This document shows positions 15,198 through 22,346 of a stretch of 64,000 bases of DNA, piece after piece. Both the position numbers and the translations under genes were made by a program. Origin of the DNA: Shigella phage JK32; sequence record MK962753.1; one strand, given 5' to 3'. The notes under the pieces were generated by a model that was given only the letters and a program-made list of their open reading frames with translations, was not told where the DNA came from and did no database searches. Within the stretch, counting starts at the first letter, position 1. Every line of letters starts with the position of its first letter.

Positions 15198-16268
15198 TTA
15201 TGCTAACATATCTTCGATTTCTTTGTCAACTGCTTCGTCGCTGATCACTTGCCCCAGCTTATAATGATCGTTGATTGCTTCGTTAAACTTATCGTTTGTC
15301 AGAAGTGGTTTCCAGAACTCAATGCTATTGGTTTCTTTAGCACGGAACTTGCGTTCTTCGGTTTCCATCTCTCCGGTCTCAGTATTCAGGATTGAACGAG
15401 AATACCAGCCGTTTGACGGTTTCACTACCCAGCCTAACTCTACAGCCAACTCCAGCAAACCGGAATAAGGATCGATGCCACCGCTAAATGTTACGCTAAT
15501 CGGGAACTTAGATTTTTCTTTAACGGTTCGTGATTTTTCCGCATTCAGGATAAAATCATAACCAGTAATTTCGGTTCCTTCTTTCTGCTGACGACGACCA
15601 ATAATGAAAACTTCATTGGCTGAATACATCGCGCCCGTACCGCCGGACATAACGGTCTTACTAAACATTTCTTGCGTTTCGTAAGTGTGGTTAATAGCGA
15701 TGCACGGGATATCATTCATAGTCAGATACGGCGTAACCATACGGAACAAGCCTTTAAGTGCTTTAGCTCGCGTCATATCCTGCGCGGATTTCTCATTAAT
15801 CGCGTCTTCAACTTCTTTTTTACTTGCCAAGTTACCGATTGAGTCAATAAAGATGATCACTTTATCTTCACGGGTAATTTGCTCAAGCTGGTTCATGATT
15901 TCAAATTTAAGTTCTTCGATGTTCTTGATTGGAACATGCACCACGCGATCAGGATCTACGCCCATAGATTCCAGATATGCGGAAGTAATACCGAACTCAG
16001 AATCAAAGAACAAACAAGCCGCATCGGGATTCTGTTTCATGTATGCACTAACACAAGTTAATCCCATGTTTGATTTAAAGTGCTTAGACGGACCAGCAAA
16101 GAAAATCAGACCAGATTGAAAGCCTTTTTTAAGATCACCTGAAAACGCAATATTCAGCATCGGGATCTTAGTGCGAGTATTTGTTTTTTCGTTAAAGAAG
16201 CTGGATTTAGACAGTACCGCAGTAGTTTTCAGGGTAGAGTTCTTTTTCAGTTTTTCAAGTACAGACAT
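15198..16268 (-). CDS. uvsX: UvsX recombinase (RecA-like)
   Basis: 356-aa ORF; GPSKHFKS Walker A; strong similarity to T4 UvsX. Confidence 0.9.
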   Translation of the reverse strand: MSVLEKLKKNSTLKTTAVLSKSSFFNEKTNTRTKIPMLNIAFSGDLKKGFQSGLIFFAGPSKHFKSNMGLTCVSAYMKQNPDAACLFFDSEFGITSAYLESMGVDPDRVVHVPIKNIEELKFEIMNQLEQITREDKVIIFIDSIGNLASKKEVEDAINEKSAQDMTRAKALKGLFRMVTPYLTMNDIPCIAINHTYETQEMFSKTVMSGGTGAMYSANEVFIIGRRQQKEGTEITGYDFILNAEKSRTVKEKSKFPISVTFSGGIDPYSGLLELAVELGWVVKPSNGWYSRSILNTETGEMETEERKFRAKETNSIEFWKPLLTNDKFNEAINDHYKLGQVISDEAVDKEIEDMLA

Positions 16269-16529: not shown

Positions 16530-18006
16530 TTAAATGTCAAACAGGTCTGTAAGAGATGCCACTTTTTCATATTGCAGCTTTGCAGCCGTGGTAATGTTCT
16601 CCAGTGGTTTGACGAAAGTCTTATTAAACAACAAAGGCCAGTCTAACCACTTTAACACCTCTGATTCAATTTCTGGAGGAATACGAGTACCGGACAACCA
16701 ACCAAAACAGATTTCTCCAAACGGATTTCGGTCTTTAAGCGGTACAATCATAACCTTCTCGCCTTCACGAATCGGATCTAGTCCGAATTTTCTGGCATTA
16801 CGATTATAACACAATACACTCTTAACCGCATACGGACAACCCTTAATCGGATACCCGTTTGAATCGCTGTATTTCTGTAGGTTGTTTGCAGATGATACCG
16901 CAGCAACCTCAAGATAATCAAGTTTTCTAAATTCTTGCTCAAAAATACCGTAGTATTCCTGCAATGACTCTTCACCTTCCTGCAACATACGGCGAATACA
17001 TTCTTTCAGTGATTTCTGACATGCTTTAGGGGTAGAGCTACGTTGCGTTTCCAAGCCCATGATTTTTAGCTTAGGTTCAGCAAAGCGTGTTCCTTCCATA
17101 TCCCAAACATTAAGAGCATAACGCTTTTTACCAGTCCAGAATCCACCGATACCCGCAGATTTCAACGGAGGACCAGCAATTGCCTCACGGTCCATAAACA
17201 TCAAGTGCTCATAGTTGTTCATGTACTCGCATAACTCGCGATATCCTTTGTCGATAATCGGTTCCATTCGATGTTTACCGAAATTATCAAGGAAGTCAAC
17301 AAGTTTTTCGGTATCGTCAAAACGGTCTTCCCCGCCAACCTTATCAACAACATTGTTAACCAGCACATAAACGGAGTCAGTATCACAATAACGAACATAT
17401 GCAAAATCAGTTGTTCCGCAAAGCTCGTTTAAGTATTCGTTAATCTTACGCTCAATCCACTGAATTGCAAGCTGACCGAACAGTGTGATCGCACTAGCGT
17501 TACGGAGATCATAAAAACGGAATTTAGGATTCCCCAACGCACCATAAAGGGAGTTGATCAAAACTTTTCGAGAAAGCTGGTTTGTATTGCACAAGATCGA
17601 CTCGTCTTTACATTCTTCCAGCAATTTCTCTAAGGCATCTTTGCTCAATTCAGAAAGCATCGATTTAAACGCTTCATCGAAGTCGTGACGCACTTCAACG
17701 CTATAGCTAATGGTTCCCCCATAAACATGATTTTCATCGTGTAGAATCGCTTTACAGAGTTCAGCATTGCGATCACATGCCAACATCATGTTTTTGTACT
17801 GCTTACGCTGGTCAAATACCTTTTTAATCTCAATCGGTACGATACCATGAATATCTTTTCGATACATCCATCCGTTAGGCGAGCAAGAATACTCATCACT
17901 CGGACGCGGGGCAGTTTTATTAATATACTCGTGCATCGGTGCAGCATCAAAAGATCCAGCGATTGTTTCCGGCGAAATGTTAGCCTGACGAATGATTGAT
18001 GGATAC
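16530..18006 (-). CDS. 43: DNA polymerase gp43, exon 2 (polymerase domain; KILINSLYGALGN and YCDTDSVYV motifs)
   Basis: Frame reads WYPSIIRQANISPETI... directly after an in-frame stop, upstream of the annotated Met at 17936; family-B motifs B and C present. Confidence 0.8.
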
Positions 18007-18146
18007 CATTATGTTCAGCGCGGTTCGCTACTCCCGCGCCCGTTCTCTTGCGAACTGCTACATGTCACCATGTAGATCAGACTATATCACATTCTCATAG
18101 AGAATCCTGCCATTTCGAATCGCTTGATTCTACTCTACTCGGTTCG

Positions 18147-18971
18147 TTACCCTTTCGATAGTCGTTGAACAACTGCATCTTTAAGCTCATTTTGATCAAA
18201 CGGTGTTCTCTTACAGTACCCGCTATAATTCTTAGCAAAAGGTTTCTTCTTACCAAAGATCTCTTTTCCTGAATTATATGCTTCAACAAGAAAATTCACC
18301 ATTTCATCAAATGTGAAACTTGCAAATTTAGCATAAGTTTCATTACGTTTTGACATTATTTTACTCATAACTTCCGGTCGTTTAGACGCTGAATTTTCTC
18401 GTTTCTCGCCAGTATTAAATGATACTAACTCACCGGAAACATATCTAGGATCGTCACAACTAACTCTAAACCGATTTCCTTCCTTATCCTTAACGATAAC
18501 AGTATTCTTTAGCTTTTCTGCCATAGAATCAAGACCTTTTCGTATAGTGTCCTCATCAGCCCCGAAATATTTCTTTCCGCTCATATCGGTTCTGGCTTTT
18601 CCGGTCTTGTTTTCGGATATTTTCCGTCTAACTTCCTCTCGCTTGGCTGGGTTATTGTCTCCAGCGAATGCATCTTTGGTTAACGCCTTCACTTTATCGT
18701 CATAAGACCCTCTAGAGATGAAAGCATATGCTCTCTTACACTCACCGTTATTGAATATTAAACACAACAACCGATGCGCCTCTACATGGTCTTCAAACTT
18801 TAGTCTTACGAGATTCCATTTATCTAACCGATGTTCAGGAAACATGGACTTCGGGCATATATGATGCACCTCGGAATATTCTTCACCCTGATACGGATTA
18901 GACACCAGTTTAATGTAGTCGTTTAATGCTTCCTCGTTATGTATTTCGTACTTTCTTAAAATGTCTTTCAT
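18147..18971 (-). CDS. intron-encoded HNH homing endonuclease
   Basis: EVHHICPKS...N...H HNH motif; start set at ATG (MKDILRKY) preceded by GGAGG, ORF track starts upstream at a non-ATG codon. Confidence 0.7.
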   Translation of the reverse strand: MKDILRKYEIHNEEALNDYIKLVSNPYQGEEYSEVHHICPKSMFPEHRLDKWNLVRLKFEDHVEAHRLLCLIFNNGECKRAYAFISRGSYDDKVKALTKDAFAGDNNPAKREEVRRKISENKTGKARTDMSGKKYFGADEDTIRKGLDSMAEKLKNTVIVKDKEGNRFRVSCDDPRYVSGELVSFNTGEKRENSASKRPEVMSKIMSKRNETYAKFASFTFDEMVNFLVEAYNSGKEIFGKKKPFAKNYSGYCKRTPFDQNELKDAVVQRLSKG

Positions 18972-18994
18972 CTCGCGCCTCCAATGTATATCAA

Positions 18995-19002
18995 TATTTA
19001 TA
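18995..19002 (-). promoter_or_regulatory. late promoter consensus TATAAATA upstream of intron ORF
   Basis: Exact TATAAATA on minus strand about 24 nt upstream of the endonuclease ATG. Confidence 0.5.
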
Positions 19003-19120
19003 TACATTATAAGACACGTTAGCTCAAAATGCAACTGCTGCTGATTGTCTCCTTAGAGATTTCCCAGCAATTAAGCAGGTTATTCGATCACTGTCACCAG
19101 TGAAAGCCCCATATCAGTTT

Positions 19121-20352
19121 AGGGAAGTAAGGTCAAAACTCATCATCCATCTGTAAGCATTAGGCACTGGCTCTTTTACGAATGCACCCGGATATGTCTG
19201 TTTAGGCTGTATCTTATTTTCAGGTACTACTTTACCCTCAGCTTTCAGAGATCCGAAAATAATAGCATCCCATACTTTCATCGGGTTATAAACATGGTTA
19301 AATTTAATCTTTGCATAGAAACATAGACTATACACAAGATCGATAAATCCACGCTTTTTATCAATCGCCAGCACACGATCAACGTCGCCGATGTTATAAT
19401 CGATGTAAAGTTGATGGTTGTCATCACGCAATTTCTTTAACGGACCATCATAATCAACCTTACCGATTCCTGTCTCATATTCAGCAACATAATCTAACGC
19501 ATATGTTGGTTGAGTCGTAAAGCTAAATTTCTTGTACAGGTCAATATAATCAAGGCTTTCGATCCCCATGATCGTAAATGCTTCACGCTCGTTGCCAAAA
19601 TCATCCTGTGAGATTCGGGATTTAATCTTACCGCACGGGCTTAGACGGTTAGCGGTTCTACTTCCGAACTTATTACTGATACGTTTAATGATATATGGAA
19701 TATCGAATGTTTCTGTGTTCCAGCCAGTGAAACCAACGGGTCGGTTTTCCTCAAAGAATCGGATGTATTCTAACAGCAATTCATCTTCTGTATCATAGAC
19801 GTTATAAACAACGCGCTCTACAATATCAGGTCGAAGAATAGACTTTCTTGCTTCCCAGATTTCACCGTTTCTTCCTTTCAAATCAAATACAAAGAAACGA
19901 TCATGTACGGAATCATAATGCGTAATTGCATCGATAGGATATTTCGCTTCTTCTGGTTTAGGAAATTCTGGGGCGGTGACCTCAATATCAACCCATGCTA
20001 CACGGATTTTATTTCGGTCATATCGAATCTCGCCTTTATATGTATCGGACAGATAGGAGATGATAAAATCATCCATCCCTAGTGCCTCTTGCCCCATTTC
20101 TCCCATCTTTTTACGCCATTTGTTGGCCTCGTTCATAGATGGGAATTTTTTAGCAATGCAAGGCTTGCCATAGATATCTTTATAATTCGTAACCATACCA
20201 GGCGCGGCATGATGAAATAAAGTTGGCGTATATTCAACGTAACGCTCTTGTTCTTGTCCAGCATCATCAATATAACGCTCGTAGATCTTATCACCTACTC
20301 GCTCACATGACAGAAAATACATAATATAAACTCCTTCACTTACGAAAGACAC
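19121..20352 (-). CDS. 43: DNA polymerase gp43, exon 1 (N-terminal and 3'-5' exonuclease domains)
   Basis: Collinear with T4 gp43 residues 1 to about 410; ORF terminates one codon after ...SFDLTSL. Confidence 0.8.
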
Positions 20353-20404: not shown

Positions 20405-20767
20405 TTATCGCCCGATCTGATATTTCTCGATCAGCGTCCACTCTTCTTTCTGTTTGAAAGACAATACACGGAAATTATTAACTTCGGTAGTTTCAAAATC
20501 ACTATCAATCAGGGTACACAGATTCCACTGCGCCAGAAGTTTTGCAATGTTATTACGGCGTAATTCATCTTCCCACGTCATTTTAACACTACGACCATCT
20601 AATTTCAACAACTCCTTGAAATGAACGATGTAATAGCGCCCTTTCTTCTGGAGAATATGACAAGACTGATACAGTGTCTTGTCTCGATTGTTGGCAATGC
20701 CGCAGCGGGTTAAAGTTTCCTTAATTTTAAGGAAGTTTTCAGGACTAATCAAATTAATTTCAATCAT
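20405..20767 (-). CDS. regA: RegA translational repressor
   Basis: 120-aa ORF with strong similarity to T4 RegA (LYQSCHILQKKG, NNFRV.SFKQK). Confidence 0.85.
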   Translation of the reverse strand: MIEINLISPENFLKIKETLTRCGIANNRDKTLYQSCHILQKKGRYYIVHFKELLKLDGRSVKMTWEDELRRNNIAKLLAQWNLCTLIDSDFETTEVNNFRVLSFKQKEEWTLIEKYQIGR

Positions 20768-20768
20768 T

Positions 20769-21347
20769 TTACCACCTTTCTATAATCTTTTTAAGTCGTT
20801 TCCTTTCTGTCTGATTCTTAGTAACACCCGCCAAAAGTTCATCGGTCGCATACGGTTTAATGTGCTTCAATAACTTGTCCATATATCCCTTTTCATTAGC
20901 CAAATCGAGATAAAACCGGGCGTCATCCATATTTACACAATATGCTTTCGCCACTGCCATTAAAACCAATTTTTGGTCCAATTCTTCTGTTAGTTTAGCC
21001 CATTTACCGTATCGTTTCCCCTTAGAAATACTCTGTAAGAGATAATCAAAATGCATTTGATCTGGGAGGCCATGACCGATTAAATTCATCACATACGCGC
21101 TATATAGACAATCTGCGTGCTGGGAAAGAGCGGTATTAATCCATCTCTGATTGTATGCAGAATTATTCCCAACATTAACGCGCTGTTTATCTAAGGTGAT
21201 ATGATCCATCAGAGCAAATAATGCATTGTCGGTTTTCTCGGTGAATGTGTCCGCTAGTTCAGACACTTTTTCCCAATCACGAGAGCGCCATGCAATTTCA
21301 TGCTCGTTTAATTGTGTATCATCTTCACCGAAAAATTGACCTAACAT
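20769..21347 (-). CDS. 62: clamp loader small subunit
   Basis: 192-aa ORF at conserved position between regA and gene 44. Confidence 0.65.
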   Translation of the reverse strand: MLGQFFGEDDTQLNEHEIAWRSRDWEKVSELADTFTEKTDNALFALMDHITLDKQRVNVGNNSAYNQRWINTALSQHADCLYSAYVMNLIGHGLPDQMHFDYLLQSISKGKRYGKWAKLTEELDQKLVLMAVAKAYCVNMDDARFYLDLANEKGYMDKLLKHIKPYATDELLAGVTKNQTERKRLKKIIERW

Positions 21348-22321
21348 TATACGAACTCCAATTCAACCATTAATTGCATTAACAAAAAGACAATGTGAAT
21401 CTCTTTATCAGCCGCGTGCGCAAACATCTGATTATTTTCACCGATAATCTCGGTCAGTCGGATAATCGACGCTGGCTTAACTTGAGTATACAACTCATTA
21501 TAAAGTTTCTTGACAAATTGAGCGTATGTGTTGGTATATCGCGGTGCTAGTTTACGCACATTAGCAAACTGTTTAGTTTTAAGTGCTTCCACCACATCGG
21601 TTACTTCGGTATTGCTACTTTCGATAACCATGCTCAATACGCCAGCATCAATTTTGCCATGTTTAGCGTAGCGGTCCAAAAGTTTCATTACGCGCCGGAA
21701 GTCTGGGAAGTTCTGCTTAACCAGTTCCGCCAGTACGCGCATTTCTTCTACTGGCACACCTTCTTTATCAAGAATTGCTTTACACCGGACGATCATTTCT
21801 TTCATCATGCGAAGCTGATCATCTTTGGTCGGAGATCCAAACGTGATGGGGTCAAATCGAGATCGCAACGCTGGGATAATACCTTCTAGATCATTTGCTG
21901 TAATGATGAATGTCACATTGTTTGAGTATGCCTCAGAGAAACTACGCAAGTGTCTTTGAGCATCAGCCAGCCCCGCTCGGTCATACTCATCGATAATAAC
22001 AACTTTGCCTTTTTCTCGTTTTTCTTCATCGAGTGATACACTCTGCGCAAAGCGTGTAATCTCATCGCGGATAAAATCAATCTTACAATCTGCGCCGTTA
22101 ACAAACAGATAATCAACACCCACATCTTCGCAAAGCGCCTTAGCAACGGTTGTTTTACCAGTACCCGGCGATGGGCTATGCAGAATCATTGAAGGGATTC
22201 GGCCTTGCTTAACAATCTGCGCGAAGATCTTTTTATCTGCTTCCGGCAGAATACATTCAGAAATTGATTTCGGACGGTATTTCTGTTCCCACTGAAACTC
22301 ATTTTCATTAACACTCAGCAT
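21347..22321 (-). CDS. 44: clamp loader ATPase subunit (AAA+)
   Basis: SPSPGTGKTTVAKAL Walker A; collinear with T4 gp44; start set at MLSVNENEF Met after GAGGTGA (ORF track extends to 22336). Confidence 0.85.
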   Translation of the reverse strand: MLSVNENEFQWEQKYRPKSISECILPEADKKIFAQIVKQGRIPSMILHSPSPGTGKTTVAKALCEDVGVDYLFVNGADCKIDFIRDEITRFAQSVSLDEEKREKGKVVIIDEYDRAGLADAQRHLRSFSEAYSNNVTFIITANDLEGIIPALRSRFDPITFGSPTKDDQLRMMKEMIVRCKAILDKEGVPVEEMRVLAELVKQNFPDFRRVMKLLDRYAKHGKIDAGVLSMVIESSNTEVTDVVEALKTKQFANVRKLAPRYTNTYAQFVKKLYNELYTQVKPASIIRLTEIIGENNQMFAHAADKEIHIVFLLMQLMVELEFV

Positions 22322-22346
22322 ATAATCACCTCTCACAAATTACATC

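Follow-up and report, generated by a model that had tools for sequence, protein, structure and literature searches.

The 64,000-nt stretch analyzed here (hereafter the window), from the genome of Shigella phage JK32 (MK962753.1), contains the replication gene cluster of an RB49-like relative of phage T4 in the genus Krischvirus, and its family B (PolB) DNA polymerase gene, gene 43, is interrupted by an insertion of 1,114 nt. All features of the locus described below lie on the minus strand. Exon 1 of gene 43 (19121..20322, by alignment with RB49 gp43 from its ATG) ends in ...MSFDLTS and the CT of a leucine codon. The insertion (18007..19120) begins with AAACUGAU, ends with ...AACAUAAUG, and holds an open reading frame (ORF) encoding 274 amino acids (18147..18971). 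Exon 2 (16530..18006, including the stop codon, likewise aligned with RB49) opens with G-UAU-CCA, which finishes the leucine and continues as YPSIIRQ.... An original prediction, made from the DNA letters alone, had read the insertion as a group I intron carrying an HNH endonuclease gene, a reading now supported by the boundaries of the insertion, by matches of its core to the Rfam group I intron model RF00028, and by covariation among related introns.

The minus strand of positions 17700-19400 was aligned with the intron-less gene 43 of RB49 and with phages JSE and ECD7. Because RB49 gene 43 is uninterrupted at the same point, the intron boundaries are base-exact: exon 1 ends ...ATGAGTTTTGACCTTACTTCCCT at 19121 and runs into AAACTGA, an in-frame Asn-stop; exon 2 begins GTATCCATCAATC at 18006; and RB49 reads GACTTAACAAGTCT|GTATCCATC across the insertion point, or in a longer reading ...ATGAGCTTTGACTTAACAAGTCT|GTATCCATCAATC.... 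The leucine codon is thus split between its second and third bases, within polymerase motif A (DLTSL|YPS). Joining 19121 to 18006 would give the spliced junction ...GACCTTACTTCCCT|GTATCCATCAATC..., also written ...ACUUCCCU-GUAUCCAUC..., and restores Leu-Tyr in a 2,679-nt ORF from the ATG at 20322. Its 892 codons equal the length of RB49 gene 43, and the predicted protein differs from RB49 gp43 at four amino acids. The original prediction had placed the insertion, the in-frame Leu-Tyr junction, the U at position -1, and the terminal intron G exactly where the alignment puts them. Its count of 902 codons had started from a GTG at 20352 and does not stand, the start of gene 43 being most likely the ATG at 20322, as in RB49.

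The insertion contains every helix of a group I ribozyme, which we placed from the RF00028 alignments together with the sequence. A contiguous guide sequence, GAUAUGGGG (19107..19115), read from the sequence and lying within the first helix that RF00028 aligns, provides arms for both P1 and P10. In P1, CCCU at the end of exon 1 (19121-19124) pairs with GGGG (19107-19110), with the U at -1 opposite G11 as a U.G wobble; in P10, GUAUC at the start of exon 2 (18002-18006) pairs with GAUAU (19111-19115). The intron ends ...AUAAUG at 18007, the terminal G being the omega G. The P, Q, R, and S elements, which lie where they had been predicted, match the RF00028 consensus AAUUGCgGGAAA / AAUCcGCAGC / GUUCAaAGACUA / GAUAUAGUC. 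RF00028 aligned to positions 18058-18300, the 3' half of the ribozyme, with 30.4 bits (E = 1.8e-5), and weakly, with 13.2 bits, to a P4-P5 fragment at 19039-19069. The JSE variant, from which 650 nt of the ORF are naturally deleted, scored 42.9 bits (E = 3.6e-9) with 253 of 253 model positions matched, and the homologue in phage PC3, at the same polymerase site and lacking most of the ORF, scored 63.4 bits, above the gathering score of 50.

Covariation was assessed in six introns, aligned with MAFFT in ORF-deleted or naturally ORF-less form, those of the window, POP12, LIMEstone1, PC3, an Acinetobacter phage, and a phiKZ-like phage. Standard pairs filled 90.7% of the cells, compared with 31-45% when the partners were slid by one to three columns. 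Changes on both sides were seen in 31 of 65 pairs, against 14.9 +/- 2.5 in shuffled alignments, none of 500 of which reached 31. The predicted P3-P7 core, with P8 and the P3/P7 pseudoknot, is fully located in the window; across the set P4 and P7 are invariant, while P2, P3, P5, P7.2, P8, P9, P9.1, and P9.2 covary.

Taken 5' to 3', the P2 hairpin (CACUG-GUGA-CAGUG, 19089..19102) has compensatory changes in all five pairs. The 5' strand of P3, CCUGCU (19074..19079), joins GGCAGG (18106..18111), a partner marked by covariation, and is paired in 100% of cases, with three of six pairs compensatory. P4-P5-P4' (UGCUGG / UCUC-UAAG-GAGA / UCAGCA, 19039..19069), aligned by RF00028, comprises the P and Q elements, and two of the four P5 pairs covary. 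P6 is a 10-bp helix between GCAGUUGCAU (19029..19038) and AUGCAGUUGU (18169-18178), complements read from the sequence, that shuts an 850-nt loop containing the endonuclease gene; POP12 retains it with two double changes. J6/7 and the 5' strand of P7 (UCAAC-GACUA, 18159..18168) belong to the R element, and, as the original prediction had proposed, GACUA pairs with UAGUC (18080-18084) to form P7, invariantly in all six relatives. UAGUC, the 3' strand of P7, forms the last five bases of the S element GAUAUAGUC (18080..18088), placed by the RF00028 alignment and covariation. Between P7 and P3' lie P7.1 and P7.2 (18117..18158), in a spacing of 46 nt (18112-18158) that RF00028 counts as a 44-nt insertion; P7.2 (GAAUC-AAGC-GAUUC) is 100% paired, with three of five pairs compensatory. 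P8 (UUCUC-UAU-GAGAA, 18092..18104) is 90% paired, with two compensatory pairs, and P9 (CUACAUG-GUGA-CAUGUAG), P9.1 (GUUC..GAAC), and P9.2 (GCGCGG..CCGCGC), together at 18018..18075, have two, four, and five, respectively. Extra helices P7.1/P7.2 between P7 and P3' reportedly define subgroup IA2, a definition said to go back to Michel and Westhof in 1990. These comparisons support the classification of the insertion as a group I intron, IA2-like by the presence of P7.1/P7.2.

The ORF within P6 runs from an ATG at 18971 to a TAA at 18147-18149 and is preceded by a GGAGG ribosome-binding site (RBS; 18978-18982). Its product is probably a diverged HNH-type homing endonuclease, with HH at residues 36-37, N53, H62, and H66. 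The predicted HNH label was partly verified. PHROGs assigned the protein to phrog_12434, "HNH endonuclease" (E = 8.6e-129), and also to phrog_655, "homing endonuclease"; Pfam gave a weak NUMOD3 match and a match to PF01844 HNH over residues 30-66 (15.4 bits, E = 0.021) that fell below the cut-off of 21.4. Searches of NCBIfam and of the PDB with the sequence, and of the PDB also with a 24-sequence profile, gave no significant match, and the solved I-HmuI structure was matched by neither sequence nor profile. Homologues of the ORF form 41 clusters in genomes and metagenomes. In an alignment of 24 of them, spanning 27-77% identity, E34, H36, H37, P40, N53, H62, and H66 are invariant; the window protein is 98% identical to copies in other phages, 57% to the ORF of the POP12 intron, and 35% to I-LimII of LIMEstone1.

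The C-terminus VVQRL(S/E)K occurs in nearly all of these homologues. In the window, the last codons of the ORF, VVQRLSKG-stop, traverse P6', J6/7, and P7 and enter P7.1, where the stop codon lies, so that the R element overlaps the 3' end of the gene, as predicted. The codons GUU CAA CGA CUA UCG AAA double as the R element and the P7 5' strand; thus the tail of the protein and the core of the ribozyme share one sequence.

Upstream of the ORF, a hairpin of 45 nt (18974..19018) buries the GGAGG: CGUGUCUU and UAAUGUAUAU pair with AUAUACAUUG and GAGGCGCG. Its minimum free energy is -18.6 kcal/mol (z = -4.8), a stability reached by none of 200 shuffles. The late-promoter-like TATAAATA (18995-19002) falls within the 5' arm and the loop, with the GGAGG in the 3' arm, such that a transcript begun a few bases past TATAAATA would lack the 5' arm and leave the RBS exposed. 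A late promoter inside an RBS-sequestering hairpin is the arrangement described for I-TevI of T4. The original prediction had recognized the ORF, the GGAGG, and TATAAATA, all of which are present, and had likened them to the control of T4 intron endonucleases; the likeness is stronger than was claimed, since the promoter stands inside the hairpin that sequesters the GGAGG. The same arrangement is kept in four lineages, namely, the window, POP12, and the metagenomic phage L010, the last two of which match TATAAATA exactly within the 5' half of the equivalent hairpin, and LIMEstone1, where CTAAATAC is followed by AUACUCUU, which pairs with AAGGAGUAU. In JSE, in which the ORF is dead, TATAGATA stands in place of TATAAATA.

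The exons next to the intron differ from the rest of the gene. The spliced window gene has 56 substitutions relative to RB49, of which 25 fall between -138 and +105 of the junction, nearly all of these clustered changes being synonymous. The upstream tract (19121..19258) has 19 substitutions in 138 nt, all of them synonymous, with 18 in the 100 nt before the junction, and it is adjoined by about 500 nt without any change; the downstream tract (17901..18006) has 7 in 105 nt. Over the spliced 240-nt junction, all intron-less krischviruses are at most 90.8% identical to the window, compared with about 96-97% for its nearest database relatives over 24 kb of genome; over that length MIZ4, ECD7, kvi, and RB49 are 95-97% identical to the window, and none matches it completely. 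The intron-bearing window, POP12, and LIMEstone1 have CCCU before the splice site, where intron-less RB49 has GUCU; the CCCU needed for P1 arises because a serine codon that is AGT in RB49 is TCC in the upstream tract of the window. This is the pattern that would be expected of a co-conversion tract copied from a more distant donor.

The intron is also sporadic in its distribution. Eleven Krischvirus records carry it in full, at 97.7-98.1% identity, and two records of JSE, a genome reportedly described by Denou et al. in 2009, carry the deleted form; about 45 have no intron at the motif A site. In all, 13 of about 60 records, about a fifth, are occupied. In GenBank the records with the full intron show two "DNA polymerase" coding sequences (CDSs) plus an "HNH endonuclease" or "hypothetical protein" and no intron feature. 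Together, the co-conversion-like tract and the sporadic distribution point to homing. The remainder of the cluster consists, in gene order along the minus strand, of gp44 (21347-22336), a 192-amino-acid ORF without annotation that is probably gp62 (20769-21347), a regA-like gene (20405-20767), gene 43, and uvsX (15198-16268).

In our view, gene 43 very likely harbors a group I intron that is mobile, has the P7.1/P7.2 helices typical of IA2, and bears an HNH-type homing endonuclease gene (HEG) in P6. The proposed sequence of events is read from structure and comparison. Gene 43 would be transcribed through the intron, and the RNA would fold and bind guanosine in P7. Cleavage would follow the last U of exon 1, held by the guide GGGG as a U.G wobble, and the end of exon 1 would then be joined to exon 2, held by GAUAU in P10, after the terminal G. 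Splicing would restore Leu-Tyr in motif A and hence the normal 892-amino-acid polymerase. In early read-through transcripts the GGAGG would be locked in the 18-bp hairpin and ribosomes kept off the ribozyme, an exclusion that matters because the last codons of the ORF (VQRLSK) are the nucleotides of J6/7 and P7. Late in infection, transcription from TATAAATA would start within the 3' arm of the hairpin, free the RBS, and allow the endonuclease to be made. In a mixed infection the enzyme may then cleave, close to motif A, a gene 43 that lacks the intron, for which RB49 offers the candidate target GACTTAACAAGTCTGTATCCATCAATC, and recombinational repair would copy the intron and neighboring exon sequence into the recipient.

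Four points weigh against this account. First, at the Rfam gathering threshold of 50 bits the whole window gives no match, the best RF00028 score being 30.4 bits. The shortfall arises because the 825-nt ORF in P6 separates the halves of the ribozyme by 850 nt that the model does not bridge, as the higher score of the ORF-less PC3 intron illustrates. Second, the covariation rests on six sequences, of which those of LIMEstone1 and PC3 hardly differ from each other, and the window itself served as the source of the structure. Third, TATAAATA is not enriched in the window, with 3 matches against 5.6 expected; we rejected it as stand-alone evidence on the basis of this below-chance count, and its weight derives from its place inside the hairpin. 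Fourth, we found no RNA or biochemical data, on splicing or cleavage, for this intron or its close relatives in a literature coverage that was incomplete.

Among the alternatives, the one that fares best is an intron that splices and no longer moves, its ORF being an inactive relic, a maturase, or something else, and its patchy distribution the result of loss. The decay of HEGs is common, both JSE and PC3 carry natural deletions of the ORF, and the HNH motif is too diverged for Pfam. We nonetheless consider immobility improbable. The ORF is full length and nearly identical to its copies in other phages, its family keeps an invariant H-H-N-H-H across its range of divergence, and the promoter and hairpin control is conserved in four lineages. 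The JSE relic, by comparison, no longer has the HNH motif or an exact TATAAATA, as a release from selection would predict. The co-conversion-like tract in the flanks also speaks against immobility.

More doubtful still, and in our view very unlikely, is a split gene, in which the two halves would be separate 43A and 43B polypeptides that assemble as a polymerase, the situation in Aeromonas phages 44RR and 25, and the insert would be defunct or without relevance. The gene is broken within motif A itself, DLTSL with its Asp being parted from YPS, and exon 2 has neither a start codon nor an RBS at the junction; the first in-frame ATG, 23 codons on (17936), would lose YPSIIRQANISPETIAGSFDAAP. On these grounds, the missing start and the position of the break, we rejected the split-gene reading, even though relatives' GenBank records annotate two "DNA polymerase" CDSs, split PolB genes exist in T4 relatives (PMC2993671, PMC2988022), and in some metagenomic relatives the polymerase gene is broken a second time without an intron. 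The insert, moreover, retains all of the ribozyme, whose pairs show compensatory changes between lineages, the exon flank is fitted for pairing with the guide sequence, and the 43A/43B split of phage 25 falls about 100 codons further on, after a 498-amino-acid 43A. An intein, or a translational bypass as in T4 gene 60, has nothing in its favor beyond the interruption of a coding gene and was rejected on frame and length as practically negligible, the insert being out of frame at 1,114 nt with a stop two codons in, devoid of intein motifs, far longer than any known bypass gap, and a match to the ribozyme model.

The closest described relative of the intron is a crippled copy of it in JSE. Petrov et al. 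(2010; Virol J 7:292, PMC2993671) identified that copy in JSE gene 43 as a putative group I intron with a relic of an HEG. It lies in the same gene, at the same base, and in the same genus, and is 99.4% identical to the window over a shared 464 nt. What differs is that JSE has lost 650 nt of the ORF (window 18234-18883), a deletion bounded by the 6-nt direct repeat AAGAAT that takes out the entire HNH motif, whereas in the window the endonuclease gene is intact and TATAAATA exact. The pair mirrors the T4 and RB3 versions of the nrdB intron. Beyond the 2010 remark on JSE, we found no report of the intact Krischvirus intron in the openly searchable literature, subscription journals lying outside this coverage.

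The design, in turn, resembles that of the T4 td intron with I-TevI and the T-even nrdB intron with I-TevIII, systems reportedly treated by Gott et al. in 1988, Belfort in 1990, Eddy and Gold in 1991, and Gibb and Edgell in 2010. These introns likewise have P7.1/P7.2 and an HEG looped out of P6, use late-promoter and RBS-hairpin control to hold translation off the ribozyme until late, and occupy a conserved site in an essential gene of DNA metabolism; I-TevIII, too, is an HNH enzyme. Unlike them, the window intron lies in a polymerase gene of another phage genus, and its endonuclease family is unrelated to I-TevI (GIY-YIG).

At the same insertion point, after the CT of Leu in D-L-x-S-L|Y-P, Dickeya phage LIMEstone1 carries the intron of I-LimII, which is present in ORF-deleted form in Escherichia phage PC3. 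Adriaenssens et al. (2012; PMC3296691) noted putative introns in the LIMEstone1 polymerase gene and tabulated I-LimII as GIY-YIG. In our alignment I-LimII (positions 530-1408 of locus L005) matches the HNH-type family of the window protein over its full length, at 35% identity and with HH..N..H..H kept. Its ribozyme is homologous to that of the window, with 72% identity when the ORF is excluded, and its HEG ends in the same VQRLSK over P7. However, the host phage belongs to the Ackermannviridae, its polymerase flank is 28% identical to that of the window, and P6 and P7.1 are built differently. In many other Ackermannviridae, too, motif A is occupied by a homologous intron with its ORF, and in POP12 (Straboviridae) such an intron and ORF lie at the identical codon position. 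All five of the metagenomic endonuclease homologues that we looked up lie between two PolB pieces in T4-like gene order; in L010, whose junction was the one read at the sequence level, exon 1 ends ...SFDVTSLN-stop at the same motif A site.

Some metagenomic loci are more complicated. L010 (3847-8125; ENA ERZ27260095 k141_49174) and L013 (3331-5830) combine a motif A intron with a second polymerase break about 80 codons on, after ...AERNTELLKSLI; small ORFs fill 2.9 kb or more at this second break, joined in L010 by a reverse-strand HNH/NUMOD3 ORF, and the polymerase of these phages seems to be in three pieces. L016 (2501-3238; Logan SRR33696486_8791) encodes the most distant of the five endonuclease homologues, which is 32% identical and lacks the VQRL tail, between PolB pieces of 487 and 364 amino acids. 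It abuts the second piece and has the look of a free-standing HEG within a split gene, not of an intron ORF.

Other phage polymerase introns are less closely related. Intron 25.g43B of Aeromonas phage 25 (Petrov, Ratnayaka, and Karam, 2010; J Mol Biol 395:457) also belongs to group IA2 and interrupts PolB in a relative of T4, scoring 64.2 bits with RF00028, but it lies in motif B (NSLYGAL|GN), has no internal ORF, relies on a free-standing HEG, and occurs in a gene that is also split into 43A and 43B. A common insertion site for the window and phage 25 introns was rejected on account of this motif B position. The polymerase introns of SPO1 and SP82 with I-HmuI and I-HmuII, and that of Bastille with I-BasI (cited in PMC2988022), are likewise group I introns with HNH genes; they differ in that they interrupt family A polymerases of Bacillus phages and their enzymes are nickases. 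For phage CB7, RT-PCR (reverse transcription-PCR) showed the splicing of other HNH-bearing polymerase introns (PMC7344957), which are distinct from the one described here.

The search material also contained group I introns elsewhere. Acinetobacter phage YMC13/03/R2096 (KM672662.1; L007 1342-1611 and 1727-1949) has tandem unannotated introns (RF00028, 78.8 and 96.6 bits) directly upstream of the annotated terminase large subunit CDS, which suggests a terminase gene with unannotated upstream exons. In the phiKZ-like Pseudomonas phage SL2 (L009 1384-1612), an unannotated intron (84.2 bits) lies between two "hypothetical protein" CDSs, and its core is matched by about 50 Pseudomonas phage records. 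A primase/helicase intron of Escherichia phage A7_1 (OP795442.1; L008 ~1050-1670) has a 3' end (P9.1-P9.2-tail) nearly identical to that of the window intron; its plus-strand HNH ORF appears to be unannotated, with a "hypothetical protein" annotated on the opposite strand.

The motif A introns span two families: the Straboviridae, with Krischvirus, POP12, and a number of T4-like phages from metagenomes, and the Ackermannviridae, with LIMEstone1 and PC3. This range raises a broader interpretation, which we hold tentatively and rate a little short of probable: the intron and its endonuclease may form one site-specific lineage for the PolB motif A Leu codon that has moved between phage families, and the endonuclease may represent a previously uncurated HNH subfamily whose C-terminal VQRLSK is written in the nucleotides of the J6/7-P7 guanosine-binding helix, protein and RNA constraining each other. 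With respect to recent transfer between families, ribozyme cores are 61-65% identical even between introns at unrelated sites, and the divergence of the HEGs roughly tracks that of the polymerases. A statement of 2010 held that there was no convincing evidence for the movement of introns or HEGs between T4-related clusters; a cross-family lineage, if true, would bear on it.

The intron, which is intact and probably mobile, belongs to a familiar class, the phage IA2-type group I introns with an HEG in P6 at a conserved motif of an essential replication gene, and a crippled copy of it had already been published in 2010 from JSE. Understanding of group I introns or of homing is unchanged, and the interest of the finding, mainly for annotation and natural history, is modest. 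In 13 or more deposited Krischvirus records, and in many genomes of Ackermannviridae, the polymerase is entered as two fragments, although a single spliced gene is very probable. From the window comes an intact form of the intron so far known only as the JSE relic, and also a second, independent example of the T4 design in which a late promoter within an RBS hairpin would shield the ribozyme from ribosomes. The points worth keeping are the dual-coded VQRL/P7 segment; the intact endonuclease, a testable enzyme with a defined candidate target in motif A of RB49 gene 43; and the single motif A site used in two phage families, which would make a convenient system for studying the reach of homing.

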